From the sequence record SRR2962707_1740: DNA of 62,760 nucleotides; one strand, 5' to 3'. Position numbers and translations under genes: made by a program. The notes under the pieces were generated by a model, which was not told the origin of the DNA, searched no databases, and saw only the letters and a program-made list of their open reading frames with translations. How positions within the stretch are numbered: position 1 is the first letter of the stretch; each line of letters begins with the position of its first letter. Of this stretch, positions 11,576 to 62,760 are shown piece after piece.

Positions 11576-12885
11576 GCGTCTTCCGATTCGTCACTCAGAG
11601 CGTCATTCAGGCGCTCTGCGGGCAGCGCCTTGGTGGTTTTTGCGCCCATCTGTTTCAGTTTTTCAGCGCGCGCCAATAAGTTCCCTCGGCCTAAGCTCAG
11701 TTTTTTCAACGCCGCATCATGACTGCGCCCTACCGCGTCTAACTTGCTACCAATGTCATCCATATCCTGCACAAAAGCAGCGAACTTGTCGTACATAGCC
11801 CCTGCTTGACGGGCAATTTCAATGGCGTTTTGGCTCTGCTTTTCATTGCGCCAAATGTTCTGAATAGTCCGCAAAGTGGCCAACAAGTTAGATGGCCCCA
11901 CAATAATAATATTGTGCTCAAACGCTTCACTAAAGAGACCGTTGTCCGCCTGTAACGCCAGACCAAACGCCGCCTCGATGGGAATAAACAGGAGCACAAA
12001 GTCCAACGAAGTAATGCCAGGAAGGTCATGATAAGACTTAGCGCTAAGCTCTTTCATATGACGGCGTACCGCTTCGAGGTGCTGTTTTAACGCCCGATTT
12101 CTTGCCTCATCGTTGTCCGCTTCCATATAAGCAAGGTAGCTCACCAACACCATTTTAGAGTCCACTACGATTTGCTTACCTTCAGGAAGATGAATCACCA
12201 CATCAGGCTGCAACCGTCTTCCCTCTTCTGTTTGCAAGGACATCTGTACATCGTATTCTCGGCCTTTTTCTAGCCCCGACTTTTCTAAAATGCGCTCCAA
12301 GATGACTTCACCCCAGCCACCTTGCAGTTTGTTTTGCCCTTTTAATGCCGTCGTCAAGCTCATGGCATCGTCACTGATCTTCTGATTCAGTTGCTGTAAG
12401 CTTTTGATTTCTCGAACCAAAGAAAAGCGCTCTCTGGCCTCTTCTTGATAACTTTTGTCCACGCTTTCTTGAAACTTCTGAATTTGGCTGCCAAGCGGCG
12501 TCAGTAAAGACCCCAGTTGGCGCTCGTTTTCTTTTGCCAAATGCTGCCCTTGCTGGCTCATAATCTCATGGGCCATTTGTTTAAATTCGGTTTCGTTCTG
12601 TTTCTTCTGCTCACGATAAAACGCTTCTTTTTCCTGCCAAACGCTTTGCGCTGCGGCAAATTGCTGTTCTAACGTAATGGATTCTTTTTCGAGATAGTGA
12701 ATCTGTTCCTTAGATTGCTCAACGAGGCGCATTAACTCCTCATTTTGTTGCTGCATTTTTTCTTGTGTATGGTGCCACTGATGACGCATAGCCTGTACAA
12801 TAAGGCTGGCAAGGCCAGACAGTAGAATCGCGCCCACACAAAAGCCCGATAACGCCCAAACCGATTGTGAAAGCCAATCTGTCAT
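11572..12885 (-). CDS. rmuC: DNA recombination protein RmuC
   Basis: N-terminal TM plus coiled coil; GGWGEVILE, PDVVIHLP, VDSK, FIPIE. Confidence 0.92.
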   Translation of the reverse strand: MTDWLSQSVWALSGFCVGAILLSGLASLIVQAMRHQWHHTQEKMQQQNEELMRLVEQSKEQIHYLEKESITLEQQFAAAQSVWQEKEAFYREQKKQNETEFKQMAHEIMSQQGQHLAKENERQLGSLLTPLGSQIQKFQESVDKSYQEEARERFSLVREIKSLQQLNQKISDDAMSLTTALKGQNKLQGGWGEVILERILEKSGLEKGREYDVQMSLQTEEGRRLQPDVVIHLPEGKQIVVDSKMVLVSYLAYMEADNDEARNRALKQHLEAVRRHMKELSAKSYHDLPGITSLDFVLLFIPIEAAFGLALQADNGLFSEAFEHNIIIVGPSNLLATLRTIQNIWRNEKQSQNAIEIARQAGAMYDKFAAFVQDMDDIGSKLDAVGRSHDAALKKLSLGRGNLLARAEKLKQMGAKTTKALPAERLNDALSDESEDA

Positions 12886-12950
12886 ATGAATTAAAACCCG
12901 CTATTTTTATAGTGAAATCAATCACTCTTGAATTCAATTGATAAGTTTAC

Positions 12951-13568
12951 ATGGATTACTACTTAAGCCCAACACACACGCAACGCTTTGATCTTGAAAT
13001 TAAAAATAGCCAGTTCATTACGCGAGTAAGTCGAACTCAAGGTCGTGATGCCGCCAAAGCCTTCATAGACGAAATACGCGCCCAGTACCCAGACGCGAAT
13101 CATCATTGCTGGGCCTTTGTCGCGGGCGCCCCCAACAACGTGCATTTGTGGGATCAAAGTGACGATGGCGAGCCCAAAGGCACCGCCGGAAAACCCATGT
13201 TAAATGTGCTACAGCATTCAGATTTTGGCGAAACGACGGTCGTCGTTACTCGCTACTTTGGTGGCATTAAACTCGGCGCTGGCGGGCTAGTAAGAGCCTA
13301 TAGCCAAGCCGTACAAGAAGCCCTAACACAAACAGAATATGAAAATGTTTACCCGCGCGTCCCTGTTCAACTAAAAATCACCTACTCTCTATTGGGTAAG
13401 GTCGAATATTTTTTAGAGCAAAGCGACATTGAGGTAAACAACAAAACCTACACCGACAGCATTATCATTGATCTTGCTGTTATAGAACGCACTTGGCCTG
13501 AGCAGAAACAAGCACTGACTGACTTATGCCAAGGCAGCTTAACGTTAATTGAACCGGACAAAGAGTAA
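12951..13568 (+). CDS. yigZ: YigZ/IMPACT family protein
   Basis: DDGEPKGTAGKP, VTRYFGGIKLGAGGLVRAY. Confidence 0.93.
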   Translation: MDYYLSPTHTQRFDLEIKNSQFITRVSRTQGRDAAKAFIDEIRAQYPDANHHCWAFVAGAPNNVHLWDQSDDGEPKGTAGKPMLNVLQHSDFGETTVVVTRYFGGIKLGAGGLVRAYSQAVQEALTQTEYENVYPRVPVQLKITYSLLGKVEYFLEQSDIEVNNKTYTDSIIIDLAVIERTWPEQKQALTDLCQGSLTLIEPDKE

Positions 13569-13570
13569 CT

Positions 13571-16399
13571 ATGTACCAAACTGGACAAAGATGGAGTAGC
13601 CGCAACGAGCCTGATCTTGGCGTCGGCATGATCATTGAAAAACAAAACAAATCCTTCTTGTTGCATTTTCCCGATGCAGAAGCAGATCGCCAATACTCAA
13701 ACGACCAAACCAGTCTTGTACGCCGTACACTCACACCTGGCGACCAATTGTCTTTCAAAGATGAAACCTTCACGGTACTGGAAGTGGAAGAAATTGACGG
13801 GCTCATCGAATACCGCATTAGCGACGATGACGATTGGCTAGAAGAGTCTCTTATCCAATTTCCACGTAACGACAAAAATGAACTGGACTCCATTTTAGCC
13901 TTGTCACCTGCGCGTCGCATGTGGTTTGACTTACGCCGCCATACATTGGAGCACCAAGCCGCCAACGCTGCGTCCCAAGTGCGTGGGTTAATGGGCTTAA
14001 AAGCAGAGCTTTTGCCACACCAAATTTACCTAGCACACGACATCGCAAATCGCCCACAAGCACGCGCCCTCTTATGTGACGAAGTGGGCATGGGTAAAAC
14101 CCTAGAAGCCGGCTTGATCTTGCATCAACGCCTATTGAACGGTCTGTGTAAACGCGCCTTGATCCTCACCCCAACCAACCTGCAACACCAATGGTTGGTT
14201 GAAATGCTACGTCGTTTCCATCAGCCATTTAGCTTGATTAACGACGCTGTGTATGAAGATTTCATGGACGGTGACGACAACCCATTTGAACAACAACCCT
14301 TTGTGATTGCCCCAATCGATTGGGCAAGCCAGCACCCGAAAGCCGCCCAGCACATGCTAGACGCAGAATGGGACATGGTGATTGTGGATGAAGCGCATCA
14401 CCTAGCGTGGCACCCAGAAACACCGAGCATCGGTTACCAGGTGGTTGCCCGCCTTGCTGAAAAATCAGAATCTTTGTTACTGCTCAGCGCAACACCAGAG
14501 CAGACCGGCGAACGCGAACATTTCTCTCGTTTGCAATTACTGGATGCCGATCGCTATCACGATTTCGAGCGTTACCAAGCGCAACAACAGGCATTCAAAC
14601 AAGCCGCCAGCTTAGCGGAAGCCTTGTTGCCAATCACCACACAGGATGACAACGCTGCAGAGCACGATTGGCCGACCACATTTGGCGACTACCTAGAGGA
14701 AGTAAAAGCCAAAGAATGGTTCACCAACCTAACCGATAGCAACCCTGAGCAACGCGCCGAAGCGGCCAAAGAAGCCATTAGTTGGCTGATTGATCGCCAC
14801 GGTACTGGGCGTGAAATGTTCCGTAACACCCGAGCGGCTGTCGGCGGCTTCCCAAATCGAGCATTGCACAGCTACCCGCTTGAAAATAACGAGTTTTTTG
14901 CCTCTGCAACACACCATGTTCAGCCTGAAACAGACGTTCAAGATGGATTGTGGGAAAAAGACCCGCGCTGGAACTGGCTAAAAGAGTTCCTAGAATGCCA
15001 AGCGGATAAAGTATTGGTGATTTGTCATACCGCTGACATGGCCCAATGGCTAAATGACCAGCTTACGTTTGCCGGCTTCCAAAGCGCCGATTTCCATGAG
15101 CAAATGCCATTGATCCATCGCGATCGCGCGGCCGCTTATTTTGCTGACGAAGAAGGCGCACAAATTCTCGTTTGTTCTGAAATCGGCAGTGAAGGTCGTA
15201 ACTTCCAGTTTAGCCATCACCTAGTGATGTATGACTTACCTGAACACCCTGACTTGCTTGAGCAACGTATCGGTCGTTTGGACCGTTTAGGACAACGTGA
15301 AGACGTGCAAATTCACGTACCTTACCTTGCCAACAGTGTGCAAGAACGCCTATTCCATTGGTATCACGATGCACTGAATGCATTCTGCCGCACCACAGGC
15401 GCAGGCGACAAAGTAGAAGAAGCCTTCCGCGATAGCCTATACGCTTATCTGCATGGGCAAGACGATGACGCCACCTTGCTTGAAGAAGCCAATGTGTATC
15501 ACGAAGCGTTGCTGAAGCAGATGGAAGAAGGCCGCAATCGTCTATTGGAAATGAGTTCTTGCCGCCCTGAACGCGCTCGTGAATTGATCACACAGATCAA
15601 TGACCAAGCCATCCACGGCCTGCATAACTACATCGAAGACGTGACCCACGCTTTTAACATTCACGCCGAATGCATGAACGACAACCCTGAGCAAAGCGCT
15701 TGGTTTATTCGTCCATCAACCGACATGATGCTAGAAGCTCTGCCTGGCATCGAAGAAGAAGGCAAAATGCTGATGTTGGATCGCCGTCAAGCGAGCCAGC
15801 GTGAAGATGTGGCCTTTGCAACATGGGAACACCCACTGATCACCATGCTAATGGACGAAGTCCAAGGCTTTGATTCAGGCAAACTCACCTCCGCTATCTT
15901 GCCTATTGCCGCCTTACCAGAAGGCACAGTCTTGGTCGAAAGTATGTTTGTCATCGAAGCGACAGCACACCCTCGATTGAAGCTGGCGCAATCACTGCCG
16001 ATGACGCCAATGTGGCAATTGTCTGATTCCAATGGCAAATTCCTGCACCAGCAATTTACCGCGGATAAGTGGGCTGAAAAACTAAAAGGCGTGCCAAACC
16101 GCGTTGCAGAACAATGGGTTGCTGCCTTGCGCAAAAATCTGATCGAAGTATTACAAACTCATCAGCTCAACGCTCAAGACCAAGCTCGCCCTATTGTGCA
16201 GGCGGCAAAATCGTCTTATCAGCATCGCTGTCAAAGTGAAATTGAGCGTTTAAGTGAACTTAAAACATTCAATTCTGCGATCACCGAAGAAGACATCGAA
16301 CGCCTAGAAACAAACATGCAAGAAGGCTTAGTGCGCATTGATGAACACCAAATCCGTTTGGATGCGATTCGAATCATTCTAACCACTAAACCGGAATAG
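13571..16399 (+). CDS. rapA: RNA polymerase-associated SNF2 ATPase RapA
   Basis: GQRWSS N-terminus, DEVGMGKT, DEAHH, SEIGSEGRNFQ, QRIGRLDR; rapA-rluA synteny. Confidence 0.92.
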   Translation: MYQTGQRWSSRNEPDLGVGMIIEKQNKSFLLHFPDAEADRQYSNDQTSLVRRTLTPGDQLSFKDETFTVLEVEEIDGLIEYRISDDDDWLEESLIQFPRNDKNELDSILALSPARRMWFDLRRHTLEHQAANAASQVRGLMGLKAELLPHQIYLAHDIANRPQARALLCDEVGMGKTLEAGLILHQRLLNGLCKRALILTPTNLQHQWLVEMLRRFHQPFSLINDAVYEDFMDGDDNPFEQQPFVIAPIDWASQHPKAAQHMLDAEWDMVIVDEAHHLAWHPETPSIGYQVVARLAEKSESLLLLSATPEQTGEREHFSRLQLLDADRYHDFERYQAQQQAFKQAASLAEALLPITTQDDNAAEHDWPTTFGDYLEEVKAKEWFTNLTDSNPEQRAEAAKEAISWLIDRHGTGREMFRNTRAAVGGFPNRALHSYPLENNEFFASATHHVQPETDVQDGLWEKDPRWNWLKEFLECQADKVLVICHTADMAQWLNDQLTFAGFQSADFHEQMPLIHRDRAAAYFADEEGAQILVCSEIGSEGRNFQFSHHLVMYDLPEHPDLLEQRIGRLDRLGQREDVQIHVPYLANSVQERLFHWYHDALNAFCRTTGAGDKVEEAFRDSLYAYLHGQDDDATLLEEANVYHEALLKQMEEGRNRLLEMSSCRPERARELITQINDQAIHGLHNYIEDVTHAFNIHAECMNDNPEQSAWFIRPSTDMMLEALPGIEEEGKMLMLDRRQASQREDVAFATWEHPLITMLMDEVQGFDSGKLTSAILPIAALPEGTVLVESMFVIEATAHPRLKLAQSLPMTPMWQLSDSNGKFLHQQFTADKWAEKLKGVPNRVAEQWVAALRKNLIEVLQTHQLNAQDQARPIVQAAKSSYQHRCQSEIERLSELKTFNSAITEEDIERLETNMQEGLVRIDEHQIRLDAIRIILTTKPE

Positions 16400-52519: not shown

Positions 52520-53203
52520 ATGTCTAAAGTACATTTTGTTGGTGGTGAAAAAGGCGGCGTTGGCAAATCCATGACCGCGCGCGTGTTAGCCCAGTATTAC
52601 ATTGATAATGAACGGCCGTTTCTCGGCTTTGATTGCGACTCTTCCCACGCGACCTTCTCGCGGTTTTATCAAGATTTCTCCTCCCCTATTATCATTGGTG
52701 AAGAAGACAGCCTAGATGGCATGTTAGCGGCCATTGAAGAATACCCAGATCGTGACCTCATTATTGATTTGGCCGCCCAAGCCGCTCAACCGCTTGGCGT
52801 TTGGATCGAAGAAACAGACGTCTTTGGGCTGTTGGATGAAATGGGTTATCAGGTGTGTTTGTGGCACGTAATGGACGATGGCGCGGATTCAGTCGCCCTG
52901 CTTGAGCAATTATTAACCCGCTATCAACAACCTTCGGTTGATTTTGTCGTGGTGCAAAACTTTGGTCGTGGCAGTGACTTCTCTCGCTTTCAAAAATCAG
53001 ACACCTACAAGCAAGCCATCGAACGCGATGCCTTAATTCTGGAACTCGCTAAACTTCAAACCAAATTAACGCAGAAAATAGACTTTAATAGCAGCAGCTT
53101 TTGGTCAGTGGCCAATGACCGAAGTATTATGAATATCGCAGAGCGTCAGCGAATGAAAGTCTGGCTGCGCAAAGTCTATGAAGAACTCGATAAAATAGGC
53201 TAA
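52520..53203 (+). CDS. ParA/MinD-superfamily P-loop NTPase (MobD-like)
   Basis: Deviant Walker A GGEKGGVGKS, FDCD, IIDLAA. Confidence 0.7.
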   Translation: MSKVHFVGGEKGGVGKSMTARVLAQYYIDNERPFLGFDCDSSHATFSRFYQDFSSPIIIGEEDSLDGMLAAIEEYPDRDLIIDLAAQAAQPLGVWIEETDVFGLLDEMGYQVCLWHVMDDGADSVALLEQLLTRYQQPSVDFVVVQNFGRGSDFSRFQKSDTYKQAIERDALILELAKLQTKLTQKIDFNSSSFWSVANDRSIMNIAERQRMKVWLRKVYEELDKIG

Positions 53204-53269: not shown

Positions 53270-53357
53270 CTAACTCTAGCGAACCCTGCACTTCGTCTGC
53301 TACAAGATGCCGTTGCTCGCTATTCAGTCTCTAAACCATGCCCTTGTCTGGGCAAGA

Positions 53358-54221
53358 TTATTCCTGCACGTCCATGTATTTGTTTGCCCACACACGGTTT
53401 TCTTCTAGCGTTGAGTAACGTGTCGACAATTCTGAAGCGTTTAGCGTGCCTTCGGCAATGCCTCTTTGCTCACGCAAGCAGTCGTACGTCGCCTTGATCG
53501 CGGCAAAATACGCGGCATGACCATTAACAATAATGCGCACACCATTGGCAGCAAGACGTTCACGATCGCGTAGCTCTGGGTTGTCGTAAGACACCAACAT
53601 AACAGGAATGGTCAAATGTTGAGTGATTTGCTCAAGATGGTCAAAGTCACGAATACCGACCATACAAATACCATCAACCCCAACCGCTTGATACGCCGTC
53701 ACACGCGTGATGGTTTCTTCGATGGTGAGTTGGCCGGCATTCGTACGAGCAATGATGCTCATCGCAGGATCAATACGCGCATCCAATGCGGCTTTCAATT
53801 TGCCTACCGCCTCTTCTAGCGGAATTAAATCCGTTGATTTATGACCGTATTTGGCAGGCAAAAGTGTGTCTTCAATCGTCAACGCAGCAACACCCGCTCG
53901 CTCTAGTTCGGTGATGGTACGAATGACATTCAAAGCATTCCCGTAGCCATGATCTGCATCAGCAATAATAGGCAAACGGGCAACACGACCAATACGAGTT
54001 GCTTGTTCAGTGAATTCACTCAAAGTGATCAAGGCAAAATCGGGCGCGGCCAATACTTGAAGTGACGCAACAGAGCCGCCAAGAATACCAACTTCAAAAC
54101 CAAGATCCGCGGCAATGCGTGCCGACATAGGATCGAAAGTAGACGCTGTGTAGTAACATTTATTGCTTGCTAATAAGGCACGAAAGTCATTTCGTAGATC
54201 GTGCTGGGAAGGTGTTGCCAT
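53358..54221 (-). CDS. Oxaloacetate decarboxylase (PEP mutase/isocitrate lyase family, PA4872-like)
   Basis: [37 protein letters not shown]. Confidence 0.85.
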
Positions 54222-54424
54222 GTATTTACTCCTGAAATGTCACTAAATTACATATGACTAATTTGGCGAGATTATACTCGTCTTAGGAATAAGCTTCATC
54301 AGTAACCAACCAATTGGTTATGTTTTGTAACTAAATGATTACTATAACGAGCGTGTATAGTAATACGCTGTGAGCACGGATTATCAGGACTCTGTAAAGA
54401 ATGGGGGATAATATTTATATCCAC

Positions 54425-54448
54425 AAAAAAGCCGACGTAAACGTCGGC
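54425..54448 (-). terminator. Terminator ending the F420 operon
   Basis: On minus strand GCCGACGT-TT-ACGTCGGC-TTTTTT. Confidence 0.85.
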
Positions 54449-54479
54449 CATGGTATTGCTTAGTATCCACTCAATGCCA

Positions 54480-55487
54480 TTACATGGCTTTAAACTGAGG
54501 AATAATATGACGACCATACTGGGCGATGATCTCTTCTTCATCACCACTGTCTAAATAGATATTAAACTGCGTGGTGCCGGCTTCTTCTAGCGCTTTGACC
54601 CGTGCGATATGATCATCCACTGTGCCCAGTACACAAAAACTTTTCACAATGTCTTCGGTAATGAAATCCAAGAAAGGATTATCACTCTGGCCGTGTTTTG
54701 AATAATCGTAACCACGACGTTTTTCAATGTAATCCGTTAAACTCTTCGGTACTAATCCAGAGTCATTACCGTATTTTTCGACAATATCAGCCACATGGTT
54801 ACCCACCATCGCAGGAAACCATTTCGTGTGTTCAATGCAATAATCTATGTCGCCAAAGTAGGCTGGCGCGGCCGCCTGTACTTTGAAATTCGACATATCA
54901 CGGCCTGCTTTTTCTCCGGCACTAATCGCTTGATCTTTGAACCATTTTACCAAATCAGGATCACCAATTTGCAGGATCAAACCGTCACCCACCTCGCCCG
55001 CTGTCGCCAGCGCTTTAGGCCCATATGCGCCAATCCAAACCGGTAGTTCATAGCCAGTTGCCCAAGGTAATTTGACTGGCTCTGGGCATTCGCCGTATTC
55101 CACCTCTTCTCCACGTACCATGGCTTTTACCTTGGTGGTGAATTCTGCAAGACGCGCCAATGTTGCCGGTTTTTTCCCCATCACCCGCATCGACGAATCA
55201 CCACGGCCGAGACCAATGTCGAAACGACCGTTACTTTGGTGCGCCAAACTTGCGTACAGACTTGCAGACAATGACCAATCTCGAATATTTGGGTTGGTAA
55301 CGCAAGGCCCAAAACGCATGGTTTTGGTGTGCTCCATGCACATCGCCATCGCCACAAAGGATTCACGCCACAAAATATGTGAATCATAAAACCAACAGTA
55401 ATCAAAGCCGGCCGCTTCCGCTTGACGGACTAAATTTCGAGCTCGATCTGGGCTGACAAACCCTTTAAACGTAATACCGAATTCCAT
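54480..55487 (-). CDS. LLM-class F420-dependent oxidoreductase, Mer-like (CPS_4043/TIGR03842-like)
   Basis: AGFDYCWFYDSH, GPCVTNP, SNGRFDIGLGRGDS, GAYGPKAL; last gene of the cof operon. Confidence 0.88.
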   Translation of the reverse strand: MEFGITFKGFVSPDRARNLVRQAEAAGFDYCWFYDSHILWRESFVAMAMCMEHTKTMRFGPCVTNPNIRDWSLSASLYASLAHQSNGRFDIGLGRGDSSMRVMGKKPATLARLAEFTTKVKAMVRGEEVEYGECPEPVKLPWATGYELPVWIGAYGPKALATAGEVGDGLILQIGDPDLVKWFKDQAISAGEKAGRDMSNFKVQAAAPAYFGDIDYCIEHTKWFPAMVGNHVADIVEKYGNDSGLVPKSLTDYIEKRRGYDYSKHGQSDNPFLDFITEDIVKSFCVLGTVDDHIARVKALEEAGTTQFNIYLDSGDEEEIIAQYGRHIIPQFKAM

Positions 55488-55575
55488 GCTGAGTTCCTCT
55501 TATGCTTGTGATGTCTTTTAATATTTTTATGGTTTAAAACCGTTCAATAACGGGGTCTAACGTCAGTCAATACAT

Positions 55576-56268
55576 TCAGTGTTGTGGAGGGCAAATCCGT
55601 ATACCGGCATGACTAAACGGCACCTCTTTTGAGATATTCAAACGAATCAAAATAGGCGTAATTGCTTCGATGCAGCGAGCACTTTCCGCCAAACCGGCGT
55701 TATAGGCTTTCGTCCCCATGGTATCGATCAGCGCCATAACCTGTTTTTTCGACGCCAAGTCATTACCGCAAACCAAAATATCGCAATTAATAGGACGCGA
55801 TAAATCGTTCAGAGTGATCGCCGACACATTGTGTAAGGCGCCCACCACAGGAACCGAATCCCCCAATAGAGCTTGCGCATGTTCAGTGACAGAACCGGCG
55901 GCTGGCATTTCTACGGCTTTCGGGTTGCCAGGGGCCAAAGGCACCACTATGTCCACCAGAATTTTCCCTGTTAGCCGTGGTTTGAGTGTATTCAAGGTGG
56001 CATCGTGTGCACTGTAAGGCACAGACAAAATCACCATACTGCTTGCTGCTTGAGCCGCCGCTTCCATAGACAGGCCAGTAATGCTGGCTGCATTCCCCCC
56101 AAGCTCAGCCAATTGAGCAACCAGCTCTTCGGCCAAAGCGTGCGCTTTTTGTGCGTCACGAGAGCCTAATACGACGCTCGTTCCTGCCATTGCAAGGCGC
56201 AAGGCGAGACCTTTCCCTTGTGGGCCGGTGCCACCGATAATGGCGACTTTTTCGCTTTCTCTACTCAT
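55576..56268 (-). CDS. npdG: F420H2:NADP+ oxidoreductase (Fno)
   Basis: [35 protein letters not shown]. Confidence 0.9.
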
Positions 56269-56325
56269 TCTATTCCCCTTTTTATGCAGCGTTTCTTATG
56301 GGTGTTCTAGTCATTTAGCGTTCAC

Positions 56326-57099
56326 TTATTTAAAAAGATCTTCATTTTGTGCACGGATAAGATCGCGGCTCTGACTGTCTGTTTTTGGCCAATCAAGACC
56401 ACGAAACACAATCACCGGCGCTTTCGCACTTTTTTCCATCAATAAACCAGAGGCCGCGGCCAGCTCATCCGCAAACGCCGGCGCTGTCACACTAAGCGGG
56501 CGTCCAAAGGCGTCCATTTCCCCTTCCATCTTCATCACCCCAGGCACATTAGCGAGACCAATAGCCACGTTGGTTTGACCTAGACGCCAAGGTCGTCCAA
56601 AGGTGTCGCTGATCACAATGCCCAGATCGCATTGGAAATGTGCTTCTAATCGCTGACACAATAATTGCGCGCTGCGATCTGGATTCTCAGGCAATAAAAT
56701 CAATTGCCCTGGGTGGTCCGCATTGGATTCATCCACCGCCGCATTGGCGCAAATGTAACCATTTTTATGCTCTGCAATGAGCACACCTTCTTGCTGGTCT
56801 GGACGTTTAACCGCCCGCACTATGCGTTTTGACTGAGATAAAATCACCTCAACTTTACGAGGGTCTTTATTGACGGTTTTGGCTAACTCGATGGCGTCTG
56901 CGCTTGGTGTGATCTGATCCAAATAGGCACAAGCGCCTTCGCTTTTGGAGACCACTTTGTGCGCGATCACTAAAATATCCCCCGCCACCAAGGCTTTTTG
57001 TTGCGCCTGAAAGGTGTCGATAATGACTTGCGCAAGGTCATCCCCTTGCTGAAAATCAGGCAAGCCTTCAAGGCGAAACATGGTCATGGACTCAGGCAT
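56326..57099 (-). CDS. cofE: F420-0:gamma-glutamyl ligase (single-domain)
   Basis: KVVSKSEG, ANAAVDESN, DTFGRPWRLG, ADELAAAS. Confidence 0.93.
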   Translation of the reverse strand: MPESMTMFRLEGLPDFQQGDDLAQVIIDTFQAQQKALVAGDILVIAHKVVSKSEGACAYLDQITPSADAIELAKTVNKDPRKVEVILSQSKRIVRAVKRPDQQEGVLIAEHKNGYICANAAVDESNADHPGQLILLPENPDRSAQLLCQRLEAHFQCDLGIVISDTFGRPWRLGQTNVAIGLANVPGVMKMEGEMDAFGRPLSVTAPAFADELAAASGLLMEKSAKAPVIVFRGLDWPKTDSQSRDLIRAQNEDLFK

Positions 57100-57751
57100 A
57101 GCGTCGCTCCTTTATAAAGGGTGTATCTGCTCCCCGACGCCACGCAGAAAAGCGCTGAGGCTGCTGAGCAATGGCCCTTTCGAGGTCATCACTTTGATCA
57201 ATGTCTTGTGATAAATTCGGTAATAAAAGCTGGCAACAAGCGAGGCCCTGTAACCCAGCTTCAGCGTCATGTTTTGCGGCGGATTCTGTGCCATAGCGAA
57301 ACGCAATGGCATCAGGCGGAGATGTCGCCAACGCATTGGTGCCACCGTCTTTGGCCTTAGCGATAACCACTTGATGGCACCTTGCTGCTTGCAACAAGGC
57401 ACTAAACTCCCCCTGATCCAATAAGGCGATGTCGCTCGGTATAATAATTTGATGGCTGAATCCGGCGTTTTTCACCCATTGGCAGGCTTGCGATAACGCA
57501 CCATTCAGACCTTTTTTGCCGTCTTCACGCAGGGTGTTTGCCCCATATGATGCGGCTAACGACAACATCTCATCGGACTCACTAATCACCATCATATTGA
57601 GCGCTGGAAAGTGACGACGAAAAAACATCAAGGTATTCGTGAACATACTGATCGCCAACTGCTCACGCTCACGATGAGACAAGCAGCCCGCTAACCGCTG
57701 TTTCGCATGGGCTGGGCGTTTCATTGGAATAACCACACACAGTTTGCTCAT
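57092..57751 (-). CDS. cofC: F420 precursor guanylyltransferase (CofC/FbiD)
   Basis: IPMK..AKQRL, GLNGAL, SDIA, GGTNAL, DID..DDL. Confidence 0.9.
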   Translation of the reverse strand: MSKLCVVIPMKRPAHAKQRLAGCLSHREREQLAISMFTNTLMFFRRHFPALNMMVISESDEMLSLAASYGANTLREDGKKGLNGALSQACQWVKNAGFSHQIIIPSDIALLDQGEFSALLQAARCHQVVIAKAKDGGTNALATSPPDAIAFRYGTESAAKHDAEAGLQGLACCQLLLPNLSQDIDQSDDLERAIAQQPQRFSAWRRGADTPFIKERRYA

Positions 57752-58710
57752 TAGGCAGCCCTCTGCTTACGTTGTTGTTCCGCAAAAGCCACAGTGTTGG
57801 TCAATAACGCGCATTTATCGTCGCGGGTTTTCATCAGCGTTGGCGTCACCAAGACATCCAGACCTTGATCCTGCAACCAAGGCAACTCATCGCGGTCCGC
57901 ATCATCGATCACCATGGCATTCAATAACGAGCCATAGCATTGATAAATGCCTTTTGAATCGGTGCTTTTCCCCATGCTTTCCAGCATTTTATCCGCAGGC
58001 CCTTTAACGGTTTTACCTGCGATCAAGGGGGAAATGGCAATCACATACGCGGTGCTTTTTTCAATCGCTTCTTGAAGCCCCGGAGTGGCCAAAATGGCAC
58101 CAATACTAACGATGGGGTTACTCGGTGCGATCACGATCACATCGCTCTTAGCAATCTGAAACAAGGCTTCCGAAGTGGCTCTGGCGATGTTTGCTCCCTT
58201 ATATTCCACCCCCAACACCTTAGGCTTGCATTGCTCACGTACAAAATATTCTTGAAACGACAACCAACCCGATTCGGTTTTTACTTGAGTTTGCACCACG
58301 TCATCCGTTGGCAACAAAATCGGCATGGTGACACCGTGACGTTTCGCCAAACGCTGAGTAATGTGGCTTGCTCGAACCCCTTGTTTGCGTAATTCGGTGC
58401 GGTAAATATGAGTGGCCAAATCCAAATCCCCAAGGGTCATCCAGGTTTCTTGGCCAAGGGCACTCAGTTCGTTTAATACTTGATAGGACTCGTTTTTCCT
58501 GCCCCAGCCTCGCTCCCGGTCGATCTGATCTCCTAAGGAATACAGTAATGTATCTATGTCTGGTGATACCCATAAACCATGAAACGCGTCATCGTCTGCA
58601 ACATTGCCAATGATGTGAGTCGTACTGGCATAGACACTGGTTGCCAATCCCTCTGCCGCTTTTGCTCCCCCCACACCACCAGCCAATAAAGTAATGGTCA
58701 AATCGGACAT
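57751..58710 (-). CDS. cofD: Phospholactate/PEP transferase (CofD/FbiA)
   Basis: LAGGVGGAK, NVADD, SPDIDT, LGDLDLATH, FQEYFV, PSNPIVSI, KGPA. Confidence 0.95.
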   Translation of the reverse strand: MSDLTITLLAGGVGGAKAAEGLATSVYASTTHIIGNVADDDAFHGLWVSPDIDTLLYSLGDQIDRERGWGRKNESYQVLNELSALGQETWMTLGDLDLATHIYRTELRKQGVRASHITQRLAKRHGVTMPILLPTDDVVQTQVKTESGWLSFQEYFVREQCKPKVLGVEYKGANIARATSEALFQIAKSDVIVIAPSNPIVSIGAILATPGLQEAIEKSTAYVIAISPLIAGKTVKGPADKMLESMGKSTDSKGIYQCYGSLLNAMVIDDADRDELPWLQDQGLDVLVTPTLMKTRDDKCALLTNTVAFAEQQRKQRAA

Positions 58711-59924
58711 TAAGCGACTCCTTGAATGGGGATGCGTCGAATCACTGAGGTGTCTAATGCAAAGGTTTCTAATGGTTCATATAGGGTATTGCGTTGTACT
58801 GCCTCTAAACCGGCCGAGTGAATATTCGCCACCATGTCTTCAGGCATGACTTCTTGCCCATGCGTCGCCCCTGCCGCCCGAGAAATACTCTCGTTCATCA
58901 AGGTGCCACCCAAATCATTCGCCCCAGAACGCAGCATTTTCGCCGCCACATCCGGCCCCATTTTGACCCAAGAGGCTTGAATATTATCGATGTGACCTTG
59001 CAGCATTAAGCGCGCAATAGCGTGCATTTTAAAATGCTCATCCCGCGTCGGACCTGGGCGGACGACATCTGGGTTATCGTTATATAAGCGAGTTTCATAA
59101 TGGATAAAACCCAATGGCACAAACTCCGTAAAACCACCGGTTTCCTTTTGAATATCACGCAACAATTCAAGATGGTTAGCCCAATGGATCGGCTGATCCA
59201 CATGGCCATACATGATCGTTGAGGTGGTTCTCACCCCCACTGAATGAGCGGCTTTAACAATGCGCACCCACTCTTCTGTGGTCAGCTTATTTTTGGTCAA
59301 TTGTTTACGAATTTCAGTGTCTAAAATCTCCGCGGCTGTGCCTGGCATGGTGCCCAGCCCCAGCGCTTTCAGTTCGCTTAAAAACACCTCAGGCTCCAGT
59401 CGAGCTTTCTTACAGCCATACCAAATTTCAAAAGGTGAAAAGGCATGAATATGAATATCTGGCACGCGTTTTTTCACAGCAACAATAAGATCACGGTAAT
59501 AATTCGCATCAATATCTGGGTGCAAGCCGCCTTGAATACAGACCTCAGTCGCACCACGAGCCCACGCTTCTTCCGCCCTGCCTGCCACTTGTTCAACCGT
59601 TAAAAATTCCGCGTCTTGATCGCCTTTTTCTTTGGCAAAATTGCAAAATCGGCAGCCCATATAGCACACGTTAGTAAAGTTAATATTGCGTGTAATAACA
59701 TAGCTTCCGGTGTTACCGACTCTTTTTTGTCGAACTTGATCGGCGGTATCTAACACCGCTTGCGCTTCTTCACCTTGCGTCGCAAACAACACACAAGCGT
59801 CGGCAACCGATAGCTCATCACCTTGTAAACACTGGGCTAAAATCTGTTGTACTGGCGCACTAACCGCTTGGCTAAAAAAAGCGGGCGCGCGGCGGTCTTG
59901 ATAAGTTGACTGTATTGGGTTCAT
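58710..59924 (-). CDS. cofH: FO synthase subunit CofH (radical SAM)
   Basis: NINFTNVCYMGCRFC, MPGTAAEIL, GANDLGGTLMNESISRAAGA. Confidence 0.93.
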   Translation of the reverse strand: MNPIQSTYQDRRAPAFFSQAVSAPVQQILAQCLQGDELSVADACVLFATQGEEAQAVLDTADQVRQKRVGNTGSYVITRNINFTNVCYMGCRFCNFAKEKGDQDAEFLTVEQVAGRAEEAWARGATEVCIQGGLHPDIDANYYRDLIVAVKKRVPDIHIHAFSPFEIWYGCKKARLEPEVFLSELKALGLGTMPGTAAEILDTEIRKQLTKNKLTTEEWVRIVKAAHSVGVRTTSTIMYGHVDQPIHWANHLELLRDIQKETGGFTEFVPLGFIHYETRLYNDNPDVVRPGPTRDEHFKMHAIARLMLQGHIDNIQASWVKMGPDVAAKMLRSGANDLGGTLMNESISRAAGATHGQEVMPEDMVANIHSAGLEAVQRNTLYEPLETFALDTSVIRRIPIQGVA

Positions 59925-61063
59925 GCTGGAACACCTCCTGACTGAACATAGGTAGAGTGCGCAGCCTGCCCTGTTAGCAGAGCGATTTTGTGCGCCAAAT
60001 GAGTGGTGAGATAGCCTTCTTTTTGCTGATAAAAACGCTCGTAAATAGTCAATCGCTCAGCAAGGGAATACCCCAAACCTTCACACGCTTGCGCCACACT
60101 GCTGATCTGAGGCCAGGCGCGCTCTGGGTTAATGAAGTCTTTTGTTAAAGGGGAAATGCCACCAAAATCATTAATACCCGCACCGACATAACAGCCATAT
60201 TCCCTCTCTAAGTTAGGCGGTGCCTGAATGCTGATTTCAGCCGGTAGAATAAGACGCGCCATCGCGATGGTGCGTTTCATGTCGTCTAAGTCGGGTTCTT
60301 GGCAACCCGCCATTGTGGTGCCTTCTTTGGCACGAAAGTTCTGGATAATGACTTCTTGAATATGGCCATAAGAAAGGTGACGGTCACGAATGGCGATCAA
60401 GCTATTCACCCGGTCTTGCCAGGTTTCCCCAATGCCAATCAAGATTCCTGTGGTAAAAGCGATGTCCAGTTTTCCCGCCTGCTCTATGGTGTCGAGCCGA
60501 CGTTTCGGCGTTTTATCCGGACACGAGTAATGGGCTTGGCCTTTTTTAAGCAAATCGTTGGAGACATTTTCCAGCATCATCCCCATGCTCGCCGCCACAG
60601 GCTTGAGGTGCTTTAATTCGTCGTATGACAAAGCACCAGCGTTCACATGAGGCAACAACGAGGTGTTCGACAAGACATTTTCACATTGGTCATGCAGGTA
60701 AGCTAATGTGCTGTCGTACCCTAACGCCGTCAGCAGCTCGCGGGCTTTTTGATGGCGCTCTTCCGGTCGCTCTCCCAAGCTAAATAAGGCCTCCTTACAA
60801 TCTAGTTGCTCCCCTTCAAACGCCGTTTTAAGCACTTGAGATGGGGTCATGTAGTTCGCATGAGGTGAATCAGGGTCTTGCACAAAGGTGCAATAACCGC
60901 ACGCATCACGACACATATTCGTTAGTGGGATAAAAACTTTTTTAGAATAGGTAAGCTGTTTGCCCCAGTGTGCATCACGTAGCTGAGCCGCTTGCTGGCA
61001 AAGCGAATACAAGTCTGGTCCAGTGACAAACTCATAAGACATAGCTTCAGAAACAGAAATCAT
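59921..61063 (-). CDS. cofG: FO synthase subunit CofG (radical SAM)
   Basis: TYSKKVFIPLTNMCRDACGYC, FTTGILIGIGE, QEVIIQNF, QAPPNL; ATG 61063 with GGAG RBS. Confidence 0.93.
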   Translation of the reverse strand: MISVSEAMSYEFVTGPDLYSLCQQAAQLRDAHWGKQLTYSKKVFIPLTNMCRDACGYCTFVQDPDSPHANYMTPSQVLKTAFEGEQLDCKEALFSLGERPEERHQKARELLTALGYDSTLAYLHDQCENVLSNTSLLPHVNAGALSYDELKHLKPVAASMGMMLENVSNDLLKKGQAHYSCPDKTPKRRLDTIEQAGKLDIAFTTGILIGIGETWQDRVNSLIAIRDRHLSYGHIQEVIIQNFRAKEGTTMAGCQEPDLDDMKRTIAMARLILPAEISIQAPPNLEREYGCYVGAGINDFGGISPLTKDFINPERAWPQISSVAQACEGLGYSLAERLTIYERFYQQKEGYLTTHLAHKIALLTGQAAHSTYVQSGGVPA

Positions 61064-61094
61064 ATTCACTCTCCGGCAAACCTAAAATTTATTT

Positions 61095-61110
61095 TTTACC
61101 ATTTGGTATA
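61095..61110. promoter_or_regulatory. RutR-type operator upstream of cofG
   Basis: TTTACCATTTGGTATA versus RutR consensus TTGACCAnnTGGTCAA. Confidence 0.7.
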
Positions 61111-61192
61111 AAAACTAATATCAAGAATATCAAAGAGAGTAAATTGTTTTTTTTAGTGCAGAGACGCACCAATAACCGACCTCGAAACTAAA

Positions 61193-61220
61193 GTTTAGTT
61201 AACTTTAAAGTTAACTAAAC
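61193..61220. repeat. Perfect 28-bp palindrome
   Basis: GTTTAGTTAACTTTAAAGTTAACTAAAC equals its own reverse complement. Confidence 0.9.
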
Positions 61221-61319
61221 GGTTAAGATCATGAATAGGAAAGGTTTTTATTTTTTAATCTATATTCTTAAGGGGAGATACACTGCATTTAAACAATAAA
61301 AAATCTTAAATTAATAAAT

Positions 61320-61967
61320 CTATTTTTTATTATGTGCACCAAGAGCGCGCACAACAAAGTCGGTGACGGCTTTCTCTGCTCGTTCAAAGTCGGGTTCGGT
61401 CAAATCACTTTTCCCTAATAAAACTTCAATCTGAGTTGAAAAATCCGCATAAGTTTGCGTCGCGGCCCAAATGGTAAAAAATAAATGTTCAGGGTCAGTT
61501 TTTTCAATTAATCCCTTATTTATCCATGAGTTAACCAATGCTACATCGCGATCAAACTGAGGTTTAAGATGGCTTATTAAGTAATCCTTTAATACCGGAG
61601 CCCCACTGATGATTTCATGGGCGAAGACTTTGGAACCATTGGGGTAGAGGCGTGAGATCTGCATTTTTTCTCGCACGTAGCTGCGGATCACCTCTTCTGG
61701 GGTATCCCCATGATTTTCAAGAAAGGAGAGTTTTTCGATCCATATGTCGAGAATCTCTTCTAGTACTTTTCTATATAGTAAGTCTTTGTTTGGAAAGTAA
61801 TAAATAAGATTTTGCTTGGATATTTTAGATATTTCCGCAATGCGTTCCATAGAAGCGCCGCTAAATCCTTTAGACGCAAATACAATTTCTGCCGACCGTA
61901 ATATACGTGACTCCAATATCTTTCTATTAACCGACTGCTTAGTATATTTTGGCTTTTTCTCAATCAA
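61320..61967 (-). CDS. rutR: RutR-type TetR regulator of pyrimidine utilisation
   Basis: TetR HTH (ISKQNLIYYFPNK); RutR-type C-terminus SKVFAHEIISGAP and FFTIWAATQTYADF; TTG start. Confidence 0.82.
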   Translation of the reverse strand: MIEKKPKYTKQSVNRKILESRILRSAEIVFASKGFSGASMERIAEISKISKQNLIYYFPNKDLLYRKVLEEILDIWIEKLSFLENHGDTPEEVIRSYVREKMQISRLYPNGSKVFAHEIISGAPVLKDYLISHLKPQFDRDVALVNSWINKGLIEKTDPEHLFFTIWAATQTYADFSTQIEVLLGKSDLTEPDFERAEKAVTDFVVRALGAHNKK

Positions 61968-62100
61968 AGTTTATCCCTACCTTATTTGACAATACTTATA
62001 AAAATAACTATCTATAATCTTATTTACTTCATTCTACCTTTAAAGTAGCATCGAAAATCACTTGAATTATCATATCATTTTGATTGCTAATATTAAAAGT

Positions 62101-62116
62101 TGGCCTGCTAATTGCT
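62101..62116 (+). promoter_or_regulatory. Sigma54 (-24/-12) promoter
   Basis: TGGCCTGCTAATTGCT: GG at 62102-03 and GC at 62114-15, canonical spacing. Confidence 0.7.
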
Positions 62117-62223
62117 TTCTGTAAAGTCTAATACACTTTTTGCCAATCACGACTCAACGCTGGATCATTATATTCTTTCTTCGATAAAAAAGAGTATGTG
62201 ATTCACTTTGTTTCGATAACTTT

Positions 62224-62239
62224 TTTACCTTTTGGTAAA
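62224..62239. promoter_or_regulatory. RutR-type operator upstream of the Zn-dependent hydrolase
   Basis: TTTACCTTTTGGTAAA, perfect TTTACC/GGTAAA arms. Confidence 0.72.
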
Positions 62240-62281
62240 AAGAATGATTTCAAAGAGAGATACGATACCTAGGAGAAAAGT

Positions 62282-62760
62282 ATGCAAGATCTACGCATTA
62301 ATGAGCAACGTCTTTGGGGCACCTTAATGGAAATGGGTGAAATAGGCGGCACCGAGAAAGGTGGCTGTAACCGGCTTGCTGGCACCGACTTAGATAAGCA
62401 ATCACGTGATCTTTTTGTGGCTTGGTGTAAGGCCTGTGGCTGCGAAGTGAACATTGATAAAATCGGTAATATTTTTGCGCGCCGACCAGGAAAAAACAAC
62501 GACTTACCTGCAGTAGGCACTGGCAGCCATCTTGATACTCAGCCTACCGGTGGTAAATTCGATGGTGTTTTTGGTGTCCTTTCTGGTGTTGAAGTACTGC
62601 GCACCTTGCATGAAAACAACATTGAAACACCCACGCCAATGGAGTTCTCTGTTTGGACAAACGAAGAAGGCTCCCGCTTTCAGCCTGCCATGCAAGGTTC
62701 AGGTACCTATGTTGGCCGCTTTGACCTTGAAACCGAATTAAACAAAACCGACGTCAATGG
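62282..62760 (+). CDS. M20 Zn-dependent N-carbamoyl-amino-acid hydrolase, beta-ureidopropionase (PydC)-like; partial, runs off the window
   Basis: Not in the ORF track because it has no stop in the window. Read directly: MQDLRINEQRLWGTLMEMGEIGGTEKGGCNRLA...GSHLDTQPTGGKFDGVFGVL...WTNEEGSRF; AGGAGA RBS. Confidence 0.88.
   Translation, partial: MQDLRINEQRLWGTLMEMGEIGGTEKGGCNRLAGTDLDKQSRDLFVAWCKACGCEVNIDKIGNIFARRPGKNNDLPAVGTGSHLDTQPTGGKFDGVFGVLSGVEVLRTLHENNIETPTPMEFSVWTNEEGSRFQPAMQGSGTYVGRFDLETELNKTDVN

Follow-up and report, generated by a model that had tools for sequence, protein, structure and literature searches.

A candidate F420H2-dependent dihydropyrimidine dehydrogenase of the TIGR03842 family, encoded together with F420 biosynthesis genes in marine Gammaproteobacteria

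In a DNA stretch of 62,760 nucleotides (nt) from sequence record SRR2962707_1740 (this whole stretch is hereafter called the window), a minus-strand gene at positions 54480-55487 encodes a luciferase-family oxidoreductase of the LLM class (hereafter LLM), and forms the end of an operon for the synthesis and reduction of the deazaflavin cofactor F420. We consider it probable that LLM is an F420H2-dependent reductase of the C5-C6 bond of uracil and thymine, which is recharged through the F420 reductase Fno at the expense of NADPH and is a non-homologous replacement for dihydropyrimidine dehydrogenase (PydA/PreTA). The known variants of the latter enzyme belong to the dihydroorotate dehydrogenase (DHOD) family, contain Fe-S clusters, and use NADPH, NADH or ferredoxin (PMC7332683). 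That LLM takes the place of PreTA in reductive pyrimidine breakdown had been suggested in a preliminary description of this DNA, and the conserved linkage of the gene, the recurrence of this linkage in a distant clade, the mutual exclusivity of LLM and PreA within one bacterial order, the uracil pocket of a RutR-like regulator and a shared putative operator now all argue for it. The window derives from a Marinomonas-type bacterium, and statements on the whole genome of the LLM host are based on the nearest genome, G001, a 100% complete Marinomonas genome that is 99% identical to window positions 53300-62760.

The LLM gene closes an F420 biosynthesis operon

The LLM gene coincides exactly with an ATG-started open reading frame (ORF) of 335 amino acids (aa). 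The protein has a single Pfam match, Bac_luciferase (PF00296, E 3.9e-57, full-length), and among the NCBIfam hidden Markov models (HMMs) it scores 523 bits against TIGR03842 ('F420_CPS_4043'; cut-off 295.45), with residues 2-332 of 335 being covered. TIGR03842 is a hypothetical equivalog without an assigned reaction. Neither a function for TIGR03842 nor an F420-dependent dihydropyrimidine dehydrogenase was found to be reported in open-access papers and bioRxiv preprints, subscription journals not being covered, which agrees with the earlier remark that the family has no assigned function. On the minus strand, tightly packed genes run in the order cofG-cofH-cofD-cofC-cofE-fno-LLM, and a terminator-like hairpin follows:

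54430-54449, minus strand: terminator-like hairpin closing the operon (8-pair stem with 6 GC pairs, loop of 4, then TTTTTT)
54480-55487, minus strand: TIGR03842 LLM-class oxidoreductase, proposed F420H2:uracil/thymine 5,6-reductase (PF00296, TIGR03842, fold)
55576-56268, minus strand: Fno/NpdG, NADPH-dependent F420 reductase (TIGR01915 201.6 bits, cut-off 149.8; PF03807)
56326-57099, minus strand: CofE, F420-0:L-glutamate ligase, stand-alone, 257 aa (TIGR01916 249.7 bits, cut-off 180.65)
57092-57751, minus strand: CofC guanylyltransferase (TIGR03552 163.2 bits, cut-off 105)
57751-58710, minus strand: CofD 2-phospho-L-lactate transferase (TIGR01819 285.7 bits, cut-off 257.45)
58710-59924, minus strand: CofH, radical SAM FO synthase subunit (TIGR03551 504.7 bits, cut-off 374.1)
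59921-61069, minus strand: CofG, radical SAM FO synthase subunit, first gene of the operon (TIGR03550 453.3 bits, cut-off 213.35)

These gene identities confirm that LLM is the sole catalytic F420 user besides Fno in the operon, as the preliminary description had stated. Three LLM-class proteins were found in G001, namely LLM, an MsnO8-family protein and a TIGR03571 protein, and the search with TIGR03618 returned one sub-threshold match (23.5 bits); as far as LLM-class enzymes are concerned, LLM is the only F420 client of this genome. It had also been suggested that replacing an Fe-S flavoprotein by LLM would spare iron. This rationale is weakened by the Pfam Radical_SAM domains of CofG and CofH, since radical SAM enzymes hold Fe-S clusters themselves.

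The stand-alone CofE is without the second domain of FbiB type, a domain that reduces dehydro-F420-0 in bacteria starting from phosphoenolpyruvate (PEP), and the product of the pathway could be F420, 3PG-F420 or a dehydro form. Variant routes of F420 biosynthesis exist (PMC8498797).

A divergent unit encodes probable later steps of pyrimidine breakdown

The pyrimidine-catabolic genes form a divergent unit outside the cof-fno-LLM operon, which corrects the earlier reading of their arrangement. The window holds only the beginning of this unit:

62282-62758, plus strand: 5' part (first 159 codons) of an M20-type N-carbamoyl amidohydrolase, proposed beta-ureidopropionase; 3'-open ORF that runs off the window

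The remainder was taken from G001, where the unit encodes the M20 hydantoinase/carbamoylase-family amidase, an NCS1 nucleobase-type permease and a dihydropyrimidinase, the last of these about 10 kb from LLM. The full-length carbamoylase (from locus L003) scores 418 bits on TIGR01879 (cut-off 204), and its best NCBIfam model is a broad subfamily named allantoate amidohydrolase. The permease reaches 319 bits on TIGR00800 against a cut-off of 353.1 and lies below the cut-offs of all specific NCS1 models, while the dihydropyrimidinase passes TIGR02033 with 580 bits (cut-off 393) and falls below the cut-off of the allantoinase model (218 vs 358).

No PreA over cut-off was found in G001 by a search that the E. 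coli control genome passed, and the sole DHO_dh-family protein of G001 is the quinone-dependent PyrD. This indicates that G001 has the second and probably the third step of the reductive pathway without a known first step. With carbamoylase, importer and dihydropyrimidinase beside the operon, the later steps thus flank an F420-making operon that contains one F420 enzyme of unassigned function. By tblastn, the aminotransferase AptA, the (methyl)malonate-semialdehyde dehydrogenase MMSDH, the transhydrogenase PntAB, a CN-hydrolase and an ABC ATPase were not found in the window; one MMSDH over cut-off is encoded elsewhere in G001.

The linkage is conserved in Gammaproteobacteria

Scanning a single genome for each species gave 486 loci with an LLM relative, and the best 80 of them, all at least 77% identical in the scan table, were analysed by counting neighbours with tblastn within 10 kb of the LLM relative. 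They include loci from Marinomonas, Bermanella, Oceanospirillum, Vibrio, Alteromonas, Halomonas/Vreelandella, Colwellia, Thalassolituus, Marinobacterium, Amphritea and Balneatrix. Fno was found in 79 of the 80 related loci, CofE in 78, CofH, CofD and CofC in 77 each, CofG in 75, the RutR-like regulator (described below) in 72, the carbamoylase in 63, the NCS1 permease in 54 and the dihydropyrimidinase in 19. The low count of the last is partly an edge effect, because the gene sits just outside the 10-kb flank in Marinomonas, Vibrio and Thalassolituus; all five individually checked genomes have a dihydropyrimidinase over cut-off and none has PreA (0/5).

The arrangement varies among the loci. 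Vibrio-type loci add a beta-alanine-type omega-aminotransferase (17/80) and the CoA-acylating MMSDH (19/80). In Halomonas-type loci the carbamoylase follows directly after LLM and the genes of the PntAB transhydrogenase are inserted; in 14/80 loci (L082 at 12414-15262 and 13 further Halomonas-type loci), pntA and pntB separate the carbamoylase from the RutR-like gene, which would be consistent with an NADPH supply dedicated to Fno. One genus (G009, G265) has LLM 2 kb from the dihydropyrimidinase (G009) and cofD on another contig of a fragmented assembly.

The pairing with dihydropyrimidinase recurs in a distant clade

Among 50%-identity cluster representatives, 5895 relatives of LLM were obtained at E <= 0.001, with few close full-length clusters (51, 43, 41, 40 and 38% identity). 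Of the ten best full-length representatives, nine exceed the TIGR03842 cut-off, and one of them, P0124, which is 43% identical to the window LLM, scores 574 bits and thereby exceeds the window protein. Members of the P0124 cluster are named Ilumatobacteraceae/Actinomycetota. This distant clade was sampled with a single distant member as query, the wider family alignment being too diverged, and 80 metagenome loci with a GC content of 0.52-0.71 were collected, for which the label Actinomycetota is the name of the query's own cluster. Their LLMs are 39-45% (about 42%) identical to the window protein.

The operon of the distant clade encodes a CN-hydrolase, a dihydropyrimidinase (TIGR02033 521 bits in L117), MMSDH (697 bits) and LLM. 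A dihydropyrimidinase homologue was found just upstream on the same strand in 37 of the 38 loci having at least 3.1 kb of upstream sequence (the exception being L144), MMSDH was directly upstream of LLM in 34/38, and the CN-hydrolase was present in all 34 loci with at least 4.1 kb upstream. In two annotated loci (L106, L117) an ABC transporter comes after LLM, and an ABC ATPase directly follows LLM in only 4/61 loci. The 80 loci yielded neither an NCS1 homologue nor any F420 genes nearby. The pairing of LLM with dihydropyrimidinase persists in a distant clade despite a non-orthologous third enzyme, and constitutes an independent replicate of the linkage.

LLM and PreA are distributed as alternatives within the order

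To describe the phyletic pattern, 301 genomes drawn evenly from the order were searched with the HMM cut-offs for LLM, dihydropyrimidinase, PreA and CofD. LLM was over cut-off in 12 genomes, dihydropyrimidinase in 27 and PreA in 19. Of the 27 dihydropyrimidinase-bearing genomes, LLM alone occurs in 12, PreA alone in 12 and neither in three, and no genome combines the two. The distance to the dihydropyrimidinase is at most about 6 kb for PreA in each of the 12 PreA genomes, and at most about 11 kb for LLM in 10/12, with G135 (100 kb) and the fragmented G265 as the exceptions. Such a distribution is typical of a non-orthologous displacement in place. Two Marinomonas genomes without LLM likewise lack dihydropyrimidinase, PreA and CofD. 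LLM is rare in a phylum-wide sample (4/341 genomes), where one of its carriers, G396, has the dihydropyrimidinase 8 kb from LLM and no PreA. Taking all LLM-bearing genomes tested together (n=18), dihydropyrimidinase was found in 18/18 and PreA in 1/18. CofD was found in 12/12 LLM-bearing genomes of the order sample vs 94/289 of the others.

Two side observations were made in these genomes. In G135 (Balneatrix-type), the distant dihydropyrimidinase is grouped with an NCS1 permease and a CN-hydrolase-type enzyme (L184, 7006-10902), and an M20 carbamoylase adjoins the RutR-like gene too, so that both types of third enzyme occur in one genome. Weaker Mer-like LLMs, scoring 147-187 bits on TIGR03842, were seen in G068, G112, G181, G145 and G285 and as a second copy in G265.

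The distribution also bears on the alternative that LLM performs a later redox step, such as reducing malonic or methylmalonic semialdehyde with F420H2 to give the 3-hydroxy acid (an analogue of PydE/RutE), the dihydropyrimidines being imported or made otherwise. The alcohol- and carbonyl-converting LLMs Adf and FGD are indeed among the structural matches of LLM, and some bacterial Pyd clusters include the malonic semialdehyde reductase PydE (PMC7332683). Such a role would leave the pathway without an entry step in 17/18 LLM-bearing genomes, and the semialdehyde is already disposed of by MMSDH, which adjoins LLM in 34/38 distant loci and lies within 10 kb in 19/80 gammaproteobacterial ones. 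Since, moreover, the exclusivity is with PreA and not with a semialdehyde enzyme, and the pocket of the regulator is of the uracil type, we regard a later redox step as quite unlikely.

A RutR-like regulator and a conserved box point to a possible control by uracil

Three features between the operon and the divergent unit were considered together:

61096-61109, no strand assigned: inverted-repeat box TACCAAATGGTA, lying some 40 nt before cofG, proposed operator of the RutR/PydR type
61320-61967, minus strand: RutR/PydR-like TetR regulator (PF08362 YcdC-like C-terminal domain, E 1.2e-47)
62225-62238, no strand assigned: another copy of the box, reading TTACCAAAAGGTAA on the minus strand, ahead of the divergent carbamoylase gene

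The regulator gene is read in the same direction as cofG and lies some 250 nt upstream of it. Its product stays below the cut-offs of the RutR models (TIGR03613, 178.5 vs 368; NF011584, 163.8 vs 230) and matches E. coli RutR structures with an E value of 4e-44. In E. coli RutR, uracil is held by L74, W77, L78, L134 and W167, of which L78 excludes thymine (PMC4325133). Four of these five residues are identical here (L73, W76, L134 and W167, corresponding to E. coli L74, W77, L134 and W167), and L78 is replaced by Ile. A RutR-like protein, PydR, represses the reductive pathway in Pseudomonas putida (PMC4325133).

A TTTACCAnnTGGTAAAA-like box precedes both transcription units, the inverted repeat reading TATACCAAATGGTAAAA before cofG and TTTACCAAAAGGTAAAA before the carbamoylase gene. 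When the region from −400 to +30 of cofG was searched in 74 loci, the best match to TTACCANNTGGTAA was 12/12 in 19 loci and 11/12 in 50, so that 69/74 loci have a match of at least 11/12, vs 11/400 random 430-nt control windows from the same loci. We infer that the box is the operator of the RutR-like regulator, and that uracil would release the regulator from it. The box is similar to that of E. coli RutR. An A+T-rich inverted repeat of 12 pairs (61193-61220, minus strand) was also observed in the stretch that separates the regulator gene from the cofG box. It may be a second operator or the terminator of the regulator gene; other Marinomonas loci have a TTAACCnnnnGGTTAA box at the matching relative position, roughly 117 nt upstream of their cofG box.

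The identity of the ring deserves consideration at this point, because the thymine-excluding L78 of RutR is Ile here. LLM could act on a related ring, such as a 5-substituted or modified pyrimidine, a hydantoin-type compound or a purine-derived ureide, with the two hydrolases being a general hydantoinase/carbamoylase pair. The broad, allantoate-named subfamily of the carbamoylase and the failure of the permease to reach any specific NCS1 cut-off would suit such a substrate, and in Chloroflexota an F420 enzyme of the luciferase family has been suggested to act on a purine-derived ring (PMC12507026). Nevertheless, the ring-opening hydrolase passes the dihydropyrimidinase equivalog and fails the allantoinase model, the linked MMSDH and beta-alanine-type aminotransferase fit beta-alanine and beta-aminoisobutyrate as products, and the partner displaced at the same genomic place is PreA, a uracil/thymine reductase. 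A ring other than uracil or thymine therefore seems unlikely.

The fold resembles Mer without its catalytic glutamate

An AlphaFold2 model of LLM was obtained with a pLDDT of 93.1 and a pTM of 0.92. The top eight Foldseek matches were all F420-dependent methylene-H4MPT reductases (Mer; PDB 8qpl, 1f07 and 1z69 among them), with TM scores of 0.76-0.83 and 25-28% identity, followed by Adf, FGD2 and FGD1, while the FMN-dependent luciferases ranked lower. In total there were 263 PDB matches at E <= 0.001, and among the matches listed were Mer, other F420 enzymes and FMN luciferase-family proteins. In the loop C62-V63-T64-N65-P66, the residues V63, T64, N65 and P66 show little or no variation among 39 sequences. 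The pair Cys62-Val63 is aligned to Gly61-Val62 of Mer, and its cis conformation is predicted from this alignment only; in Mer, the Gly61-Val62 cis-peptide loop backs the deazaflavin (PMC11094777). Asp97 aligns with Mer Asp96, and Gln173, which aligns with an Asn in the compared Mer, may tentatively be seen as the counterpart of Mer Gln178. The matches to F420 enzymes, the VTNP loop and the co-occurrence with CofD suggest that LLM binds F420.

These features bring up the possibility that LLM is a true Mer-type methylene-tetrahydropterin reductase of C1 metabolism, as both its closest solved structures and its next-best HMMs after TIGR03842 (two Mer models) are Mer. However, both Mer equivalog models score far below their cut-offs (NF002619, 132.6 vs 276; TIGR03555, 122.6 vs 348.7), and the genomic context is pyrimidine-catabolic. 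Furthermore, Glu6 of Mer is catalytic, and its E6Q variant keeps 0.4% of kcat (PMC11094777). Thr6 of LLM, at the end of strand beta-1, aligns with Glu6 of 1f07 and 1z69, and this position is T, C, V or S across 17 TIGR03842 members, never Glu. LLM is thus not a Mer, and we hold a true Mer activity to be very improbable. The modelled structure indicates that LLM is Mer-like in fold and probably in cofactor binding, and the term 'Mer-like' of the preliminary description is to be kept for this resemblance and dropped as a statement of membership, since the Mer models are failed by such a distance.

Another luciferase-family enzyme offers a comparison. RutA, which attacks uracil and is under RutR control, is of the LLM class as well, and LLM might likewise be an FMN- and O2-dependent pyrimidine monooxygenase. 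In E. coli, RutR controls rutA-G (PMC4325133). No RutA model was found among the 21 NCBIfam matches of LLM at E <= 0.001, in which the good scorers are F420-class LLM models, and in the fold search every F420 enzyme ranks above the FMN luciferases. The gene shares its operon with F420 synthesis and Fno and not with a flavin reductase, and the downstream enzymes are those of the reductive pathway and not of the Rut pathway. An RutA-like activity is therefore hardly to be expected.

In DHOD and dihydropyrimidine dehydrogenase, a Ser or Cys is the donor of the C5 proton. The Thr/Cys at position 6 was considered for this role and dropped, because the position is Val in several TIGR03842 members including P0124. 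A catalytic His is known in FGD and Adf, and by analogy His37, which is conserved in most TIGR03842 members, would be the first candidate proton donor.

Further features of the locus

Downstream of the operon, behind its terminator, two further genes were noted:

53358-54221, minus strand: PEP-mutase/isocitrate-lyase-family gene (PF13714, E 1.3e-37; PrpB model 149 bits vs cut-off 354)
52520-53203, plus strand: ParA/CbiA-type ATPase, just past the PEP-mutase-like gene (sub-threshold TraL match, 73 bits vs cut-off 360)

The PEP-mutase-like gene has its own box-like palindrome, AACCAATTGGTT at 54307-54320, which resembles the core of the cofG box, and accompanies the cluster in 5/80 related loci. 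It is possibly a member of the regulon, though no conserved part of the cluster. The ATPase could be a remnant of mobile DNA in the vicinity of the module.

As to transcription, a sigma-70 scan found 9 promoter-like sites vs a mean of 13.6 in shuffled sequences and hence no excess. Three RNA-library runs of one study contain near-identical contig pieces of 151-353 nt over LLM, fno, cofD, cofG/H, the regulator and the PEP-mutase-like gene. These pieces are at most a weak hint of operon transcription, because RNA libraries can contain DNA and contigs give no levels.

Discussion

Based on these findings, the following course of reactions can be envisaged. Uracil, and perhaps thymine, would enter through the NCS1 permease, and uracil would release the RutR/PydR-like repressor from the TTTACCAnnTGGTAAAA-type boxes before both transcription units, whereupon the induced unit would make F420 (by CofG, CofH, CofC, CofD and CofE), Fno and LLM. 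Fno would load F420 with hydride from NADPH. LLM would then transfer this hydride, carried on C5 of F420H2, to the C6 atom of the pyrimidine, whose C5 would be protonated, to give 5,6-dihydrouracil or dihydrothymine; both the substrate and the reductive direction of this step are suggested by the genes around it. Dihydropyrimidinase would open the ring and the M20 carbamoylase would free beta-alanine (or beta-aminoisobutyrate from thymine), CO2 and NH3. The aminotransferase and MMSDH, which are linked in some genomes and of which MMSDH lies elsewhere in G001, would take the product onward.

Going one step further, we lean slightly towards the view that the locus is a self-contained module of cofactor and client, in which complete F420 biosynthesis, Fno and a non-homologous dihydropyrimidine dehydrogenase free of Fe-S clusters and flavin are induced by uracil via a RutR-type operator, and whose client came from the F420-rich Actinomycetota and travels with the cofactor genes in marine Gammaproteobacteria.

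Several points weigh against the proposed uracil/thymine reductase. For every member of the family, the case is built from genomic context. NADPH and F420H2 have similar potentials, so that no thermodynamic gain explains the detour through F420. No acid residue for the protonation of C5 can be named, and position 6 varies. The phyletic counts overstate their independence, because 8/12 LLM genomes are Marinomonas and only four genera are represented. The dihydropyrimidinase of G135 is 100 kb from LLM, and the three dihydropyrimidinase-bearing genomes with neither LLM nor PreA imply that other entries into the pathway, or other uses of dihydropyrimidinase, exist. G339, from another class, has the LLM cluster as well as a canonical PreA beside a third dihydropyrimidinase (C48:32219-37235). 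Its cof-fno-LLM-RutR-like cluster is accompanied by a PreA-less set of AptA aminotransferase, carbamoylase, dihydropyrimidinase and NCS1 permease on another contig (L181 C33, L182 C67). Together, these loci of G339 look like two parallel pyrimidine routes that perhaps differ in substrates or conditions. The anti-correlation with preTA foreseen in the preliminary description is thus strong, as it holds within the order and in all but one of the LLM-bearing genomes, and is not absolute, because G339 has both. Finally, CofD occurs in 106/301 genomes of the order and LLM in 12/301. That F420 is made in the order solely for LLM was accordingly rejected; the module explains F420 in some, not all, bacteria of the order, leaving it unexplained at large, and most F420 producers there must have other F420 clients.

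Compared with PydA, PreT-PreA and PydAc, LLM is proposed for the same reaction, is found next to dihydropyrimidinase at the genomic position otherwise taken by PreA, and does not co-occur with PreA in the order sample, but it is a TIM barrel with neither a DHO_dh domain nor Fe-S or flavin domains, and would receive its hydride from F420H2 via Fno, in place of electrons passed along Fe-S clusters. With Mer it shares the fold, the VTNP loop and the aspartate Asp97 (Asp96 in Mer), whereas it fails the Mer HMMs, has Thr in place of Glu6, and belongs to a pyrimidine-catabolic context in aerobic marine bacteria. NpsU/SSGG-03002, a putative oxidoreductase using F420 or FMN, is genetically required for the C5-C6 reduction of the uracil ring in mureidomycin/napsamycin (PMC10714638) and may serve as a genetic precedent for the chemistry of LLM. 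Its substrate is, however, a uridyl-peptide antibiotic intermediate, and by the description to which our comparison is confined, assays in vitro failed and the cofactor is unproven (PMC10714638). The putative 'yanthine reductase' of Chloroflexota is a further likeness, being an F420 LLM that would replace YgfK, an Fe-S flavoprotein resembling dihydropyrimidine dehydrogenase, before a ring-opening amidohydrolase in uricolytic clusters; it differs in its purine-derived substrate and its phylum, and is known to us from the description in a 2025 note in which it is predicted only (PMC12507026). RutR of E. coli and PydR share with the present regulator the TetR family, the conserved uracil pocket, a palindromic box and the link to pyrimidine catabolism, while here the box also precedes a whole cofactor-biosynthesis operon and the regulator is below the RutR cut-off. 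The new element is the arrangement in Gammaproteobacteria, where a single operon preceded by a RutR-type box unites synthesis of the cofactor, its recharging and the client enzyme.

Why Proteobacteria make F420 was named an open question in a 2021 review (PMC8498797), and the locus offers a concrete, testable answer for one widespread marine module. If the proposal is true, LLM would be a fourth, non-homologous type of dihydropyrimidine dehydrogenase besides the NADPH-, NADH- and ferredoxin-dependent ones, and an oxygen-tolerant hydride-transfer enzyme for the reduction of uracil-type C=C bonds. It would also provide the first function for TIGR03842, which is named in thousands of annotations only as 'TIGR03842 family LLM class F420-dependent oxidoreductase', and would correct reconstructions that score such genomes as negative for pyrimidine degradation. 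The reaction would be a new F420-dependent one, and would give F420 its first defined physiological role in Gammaproteobacteria.

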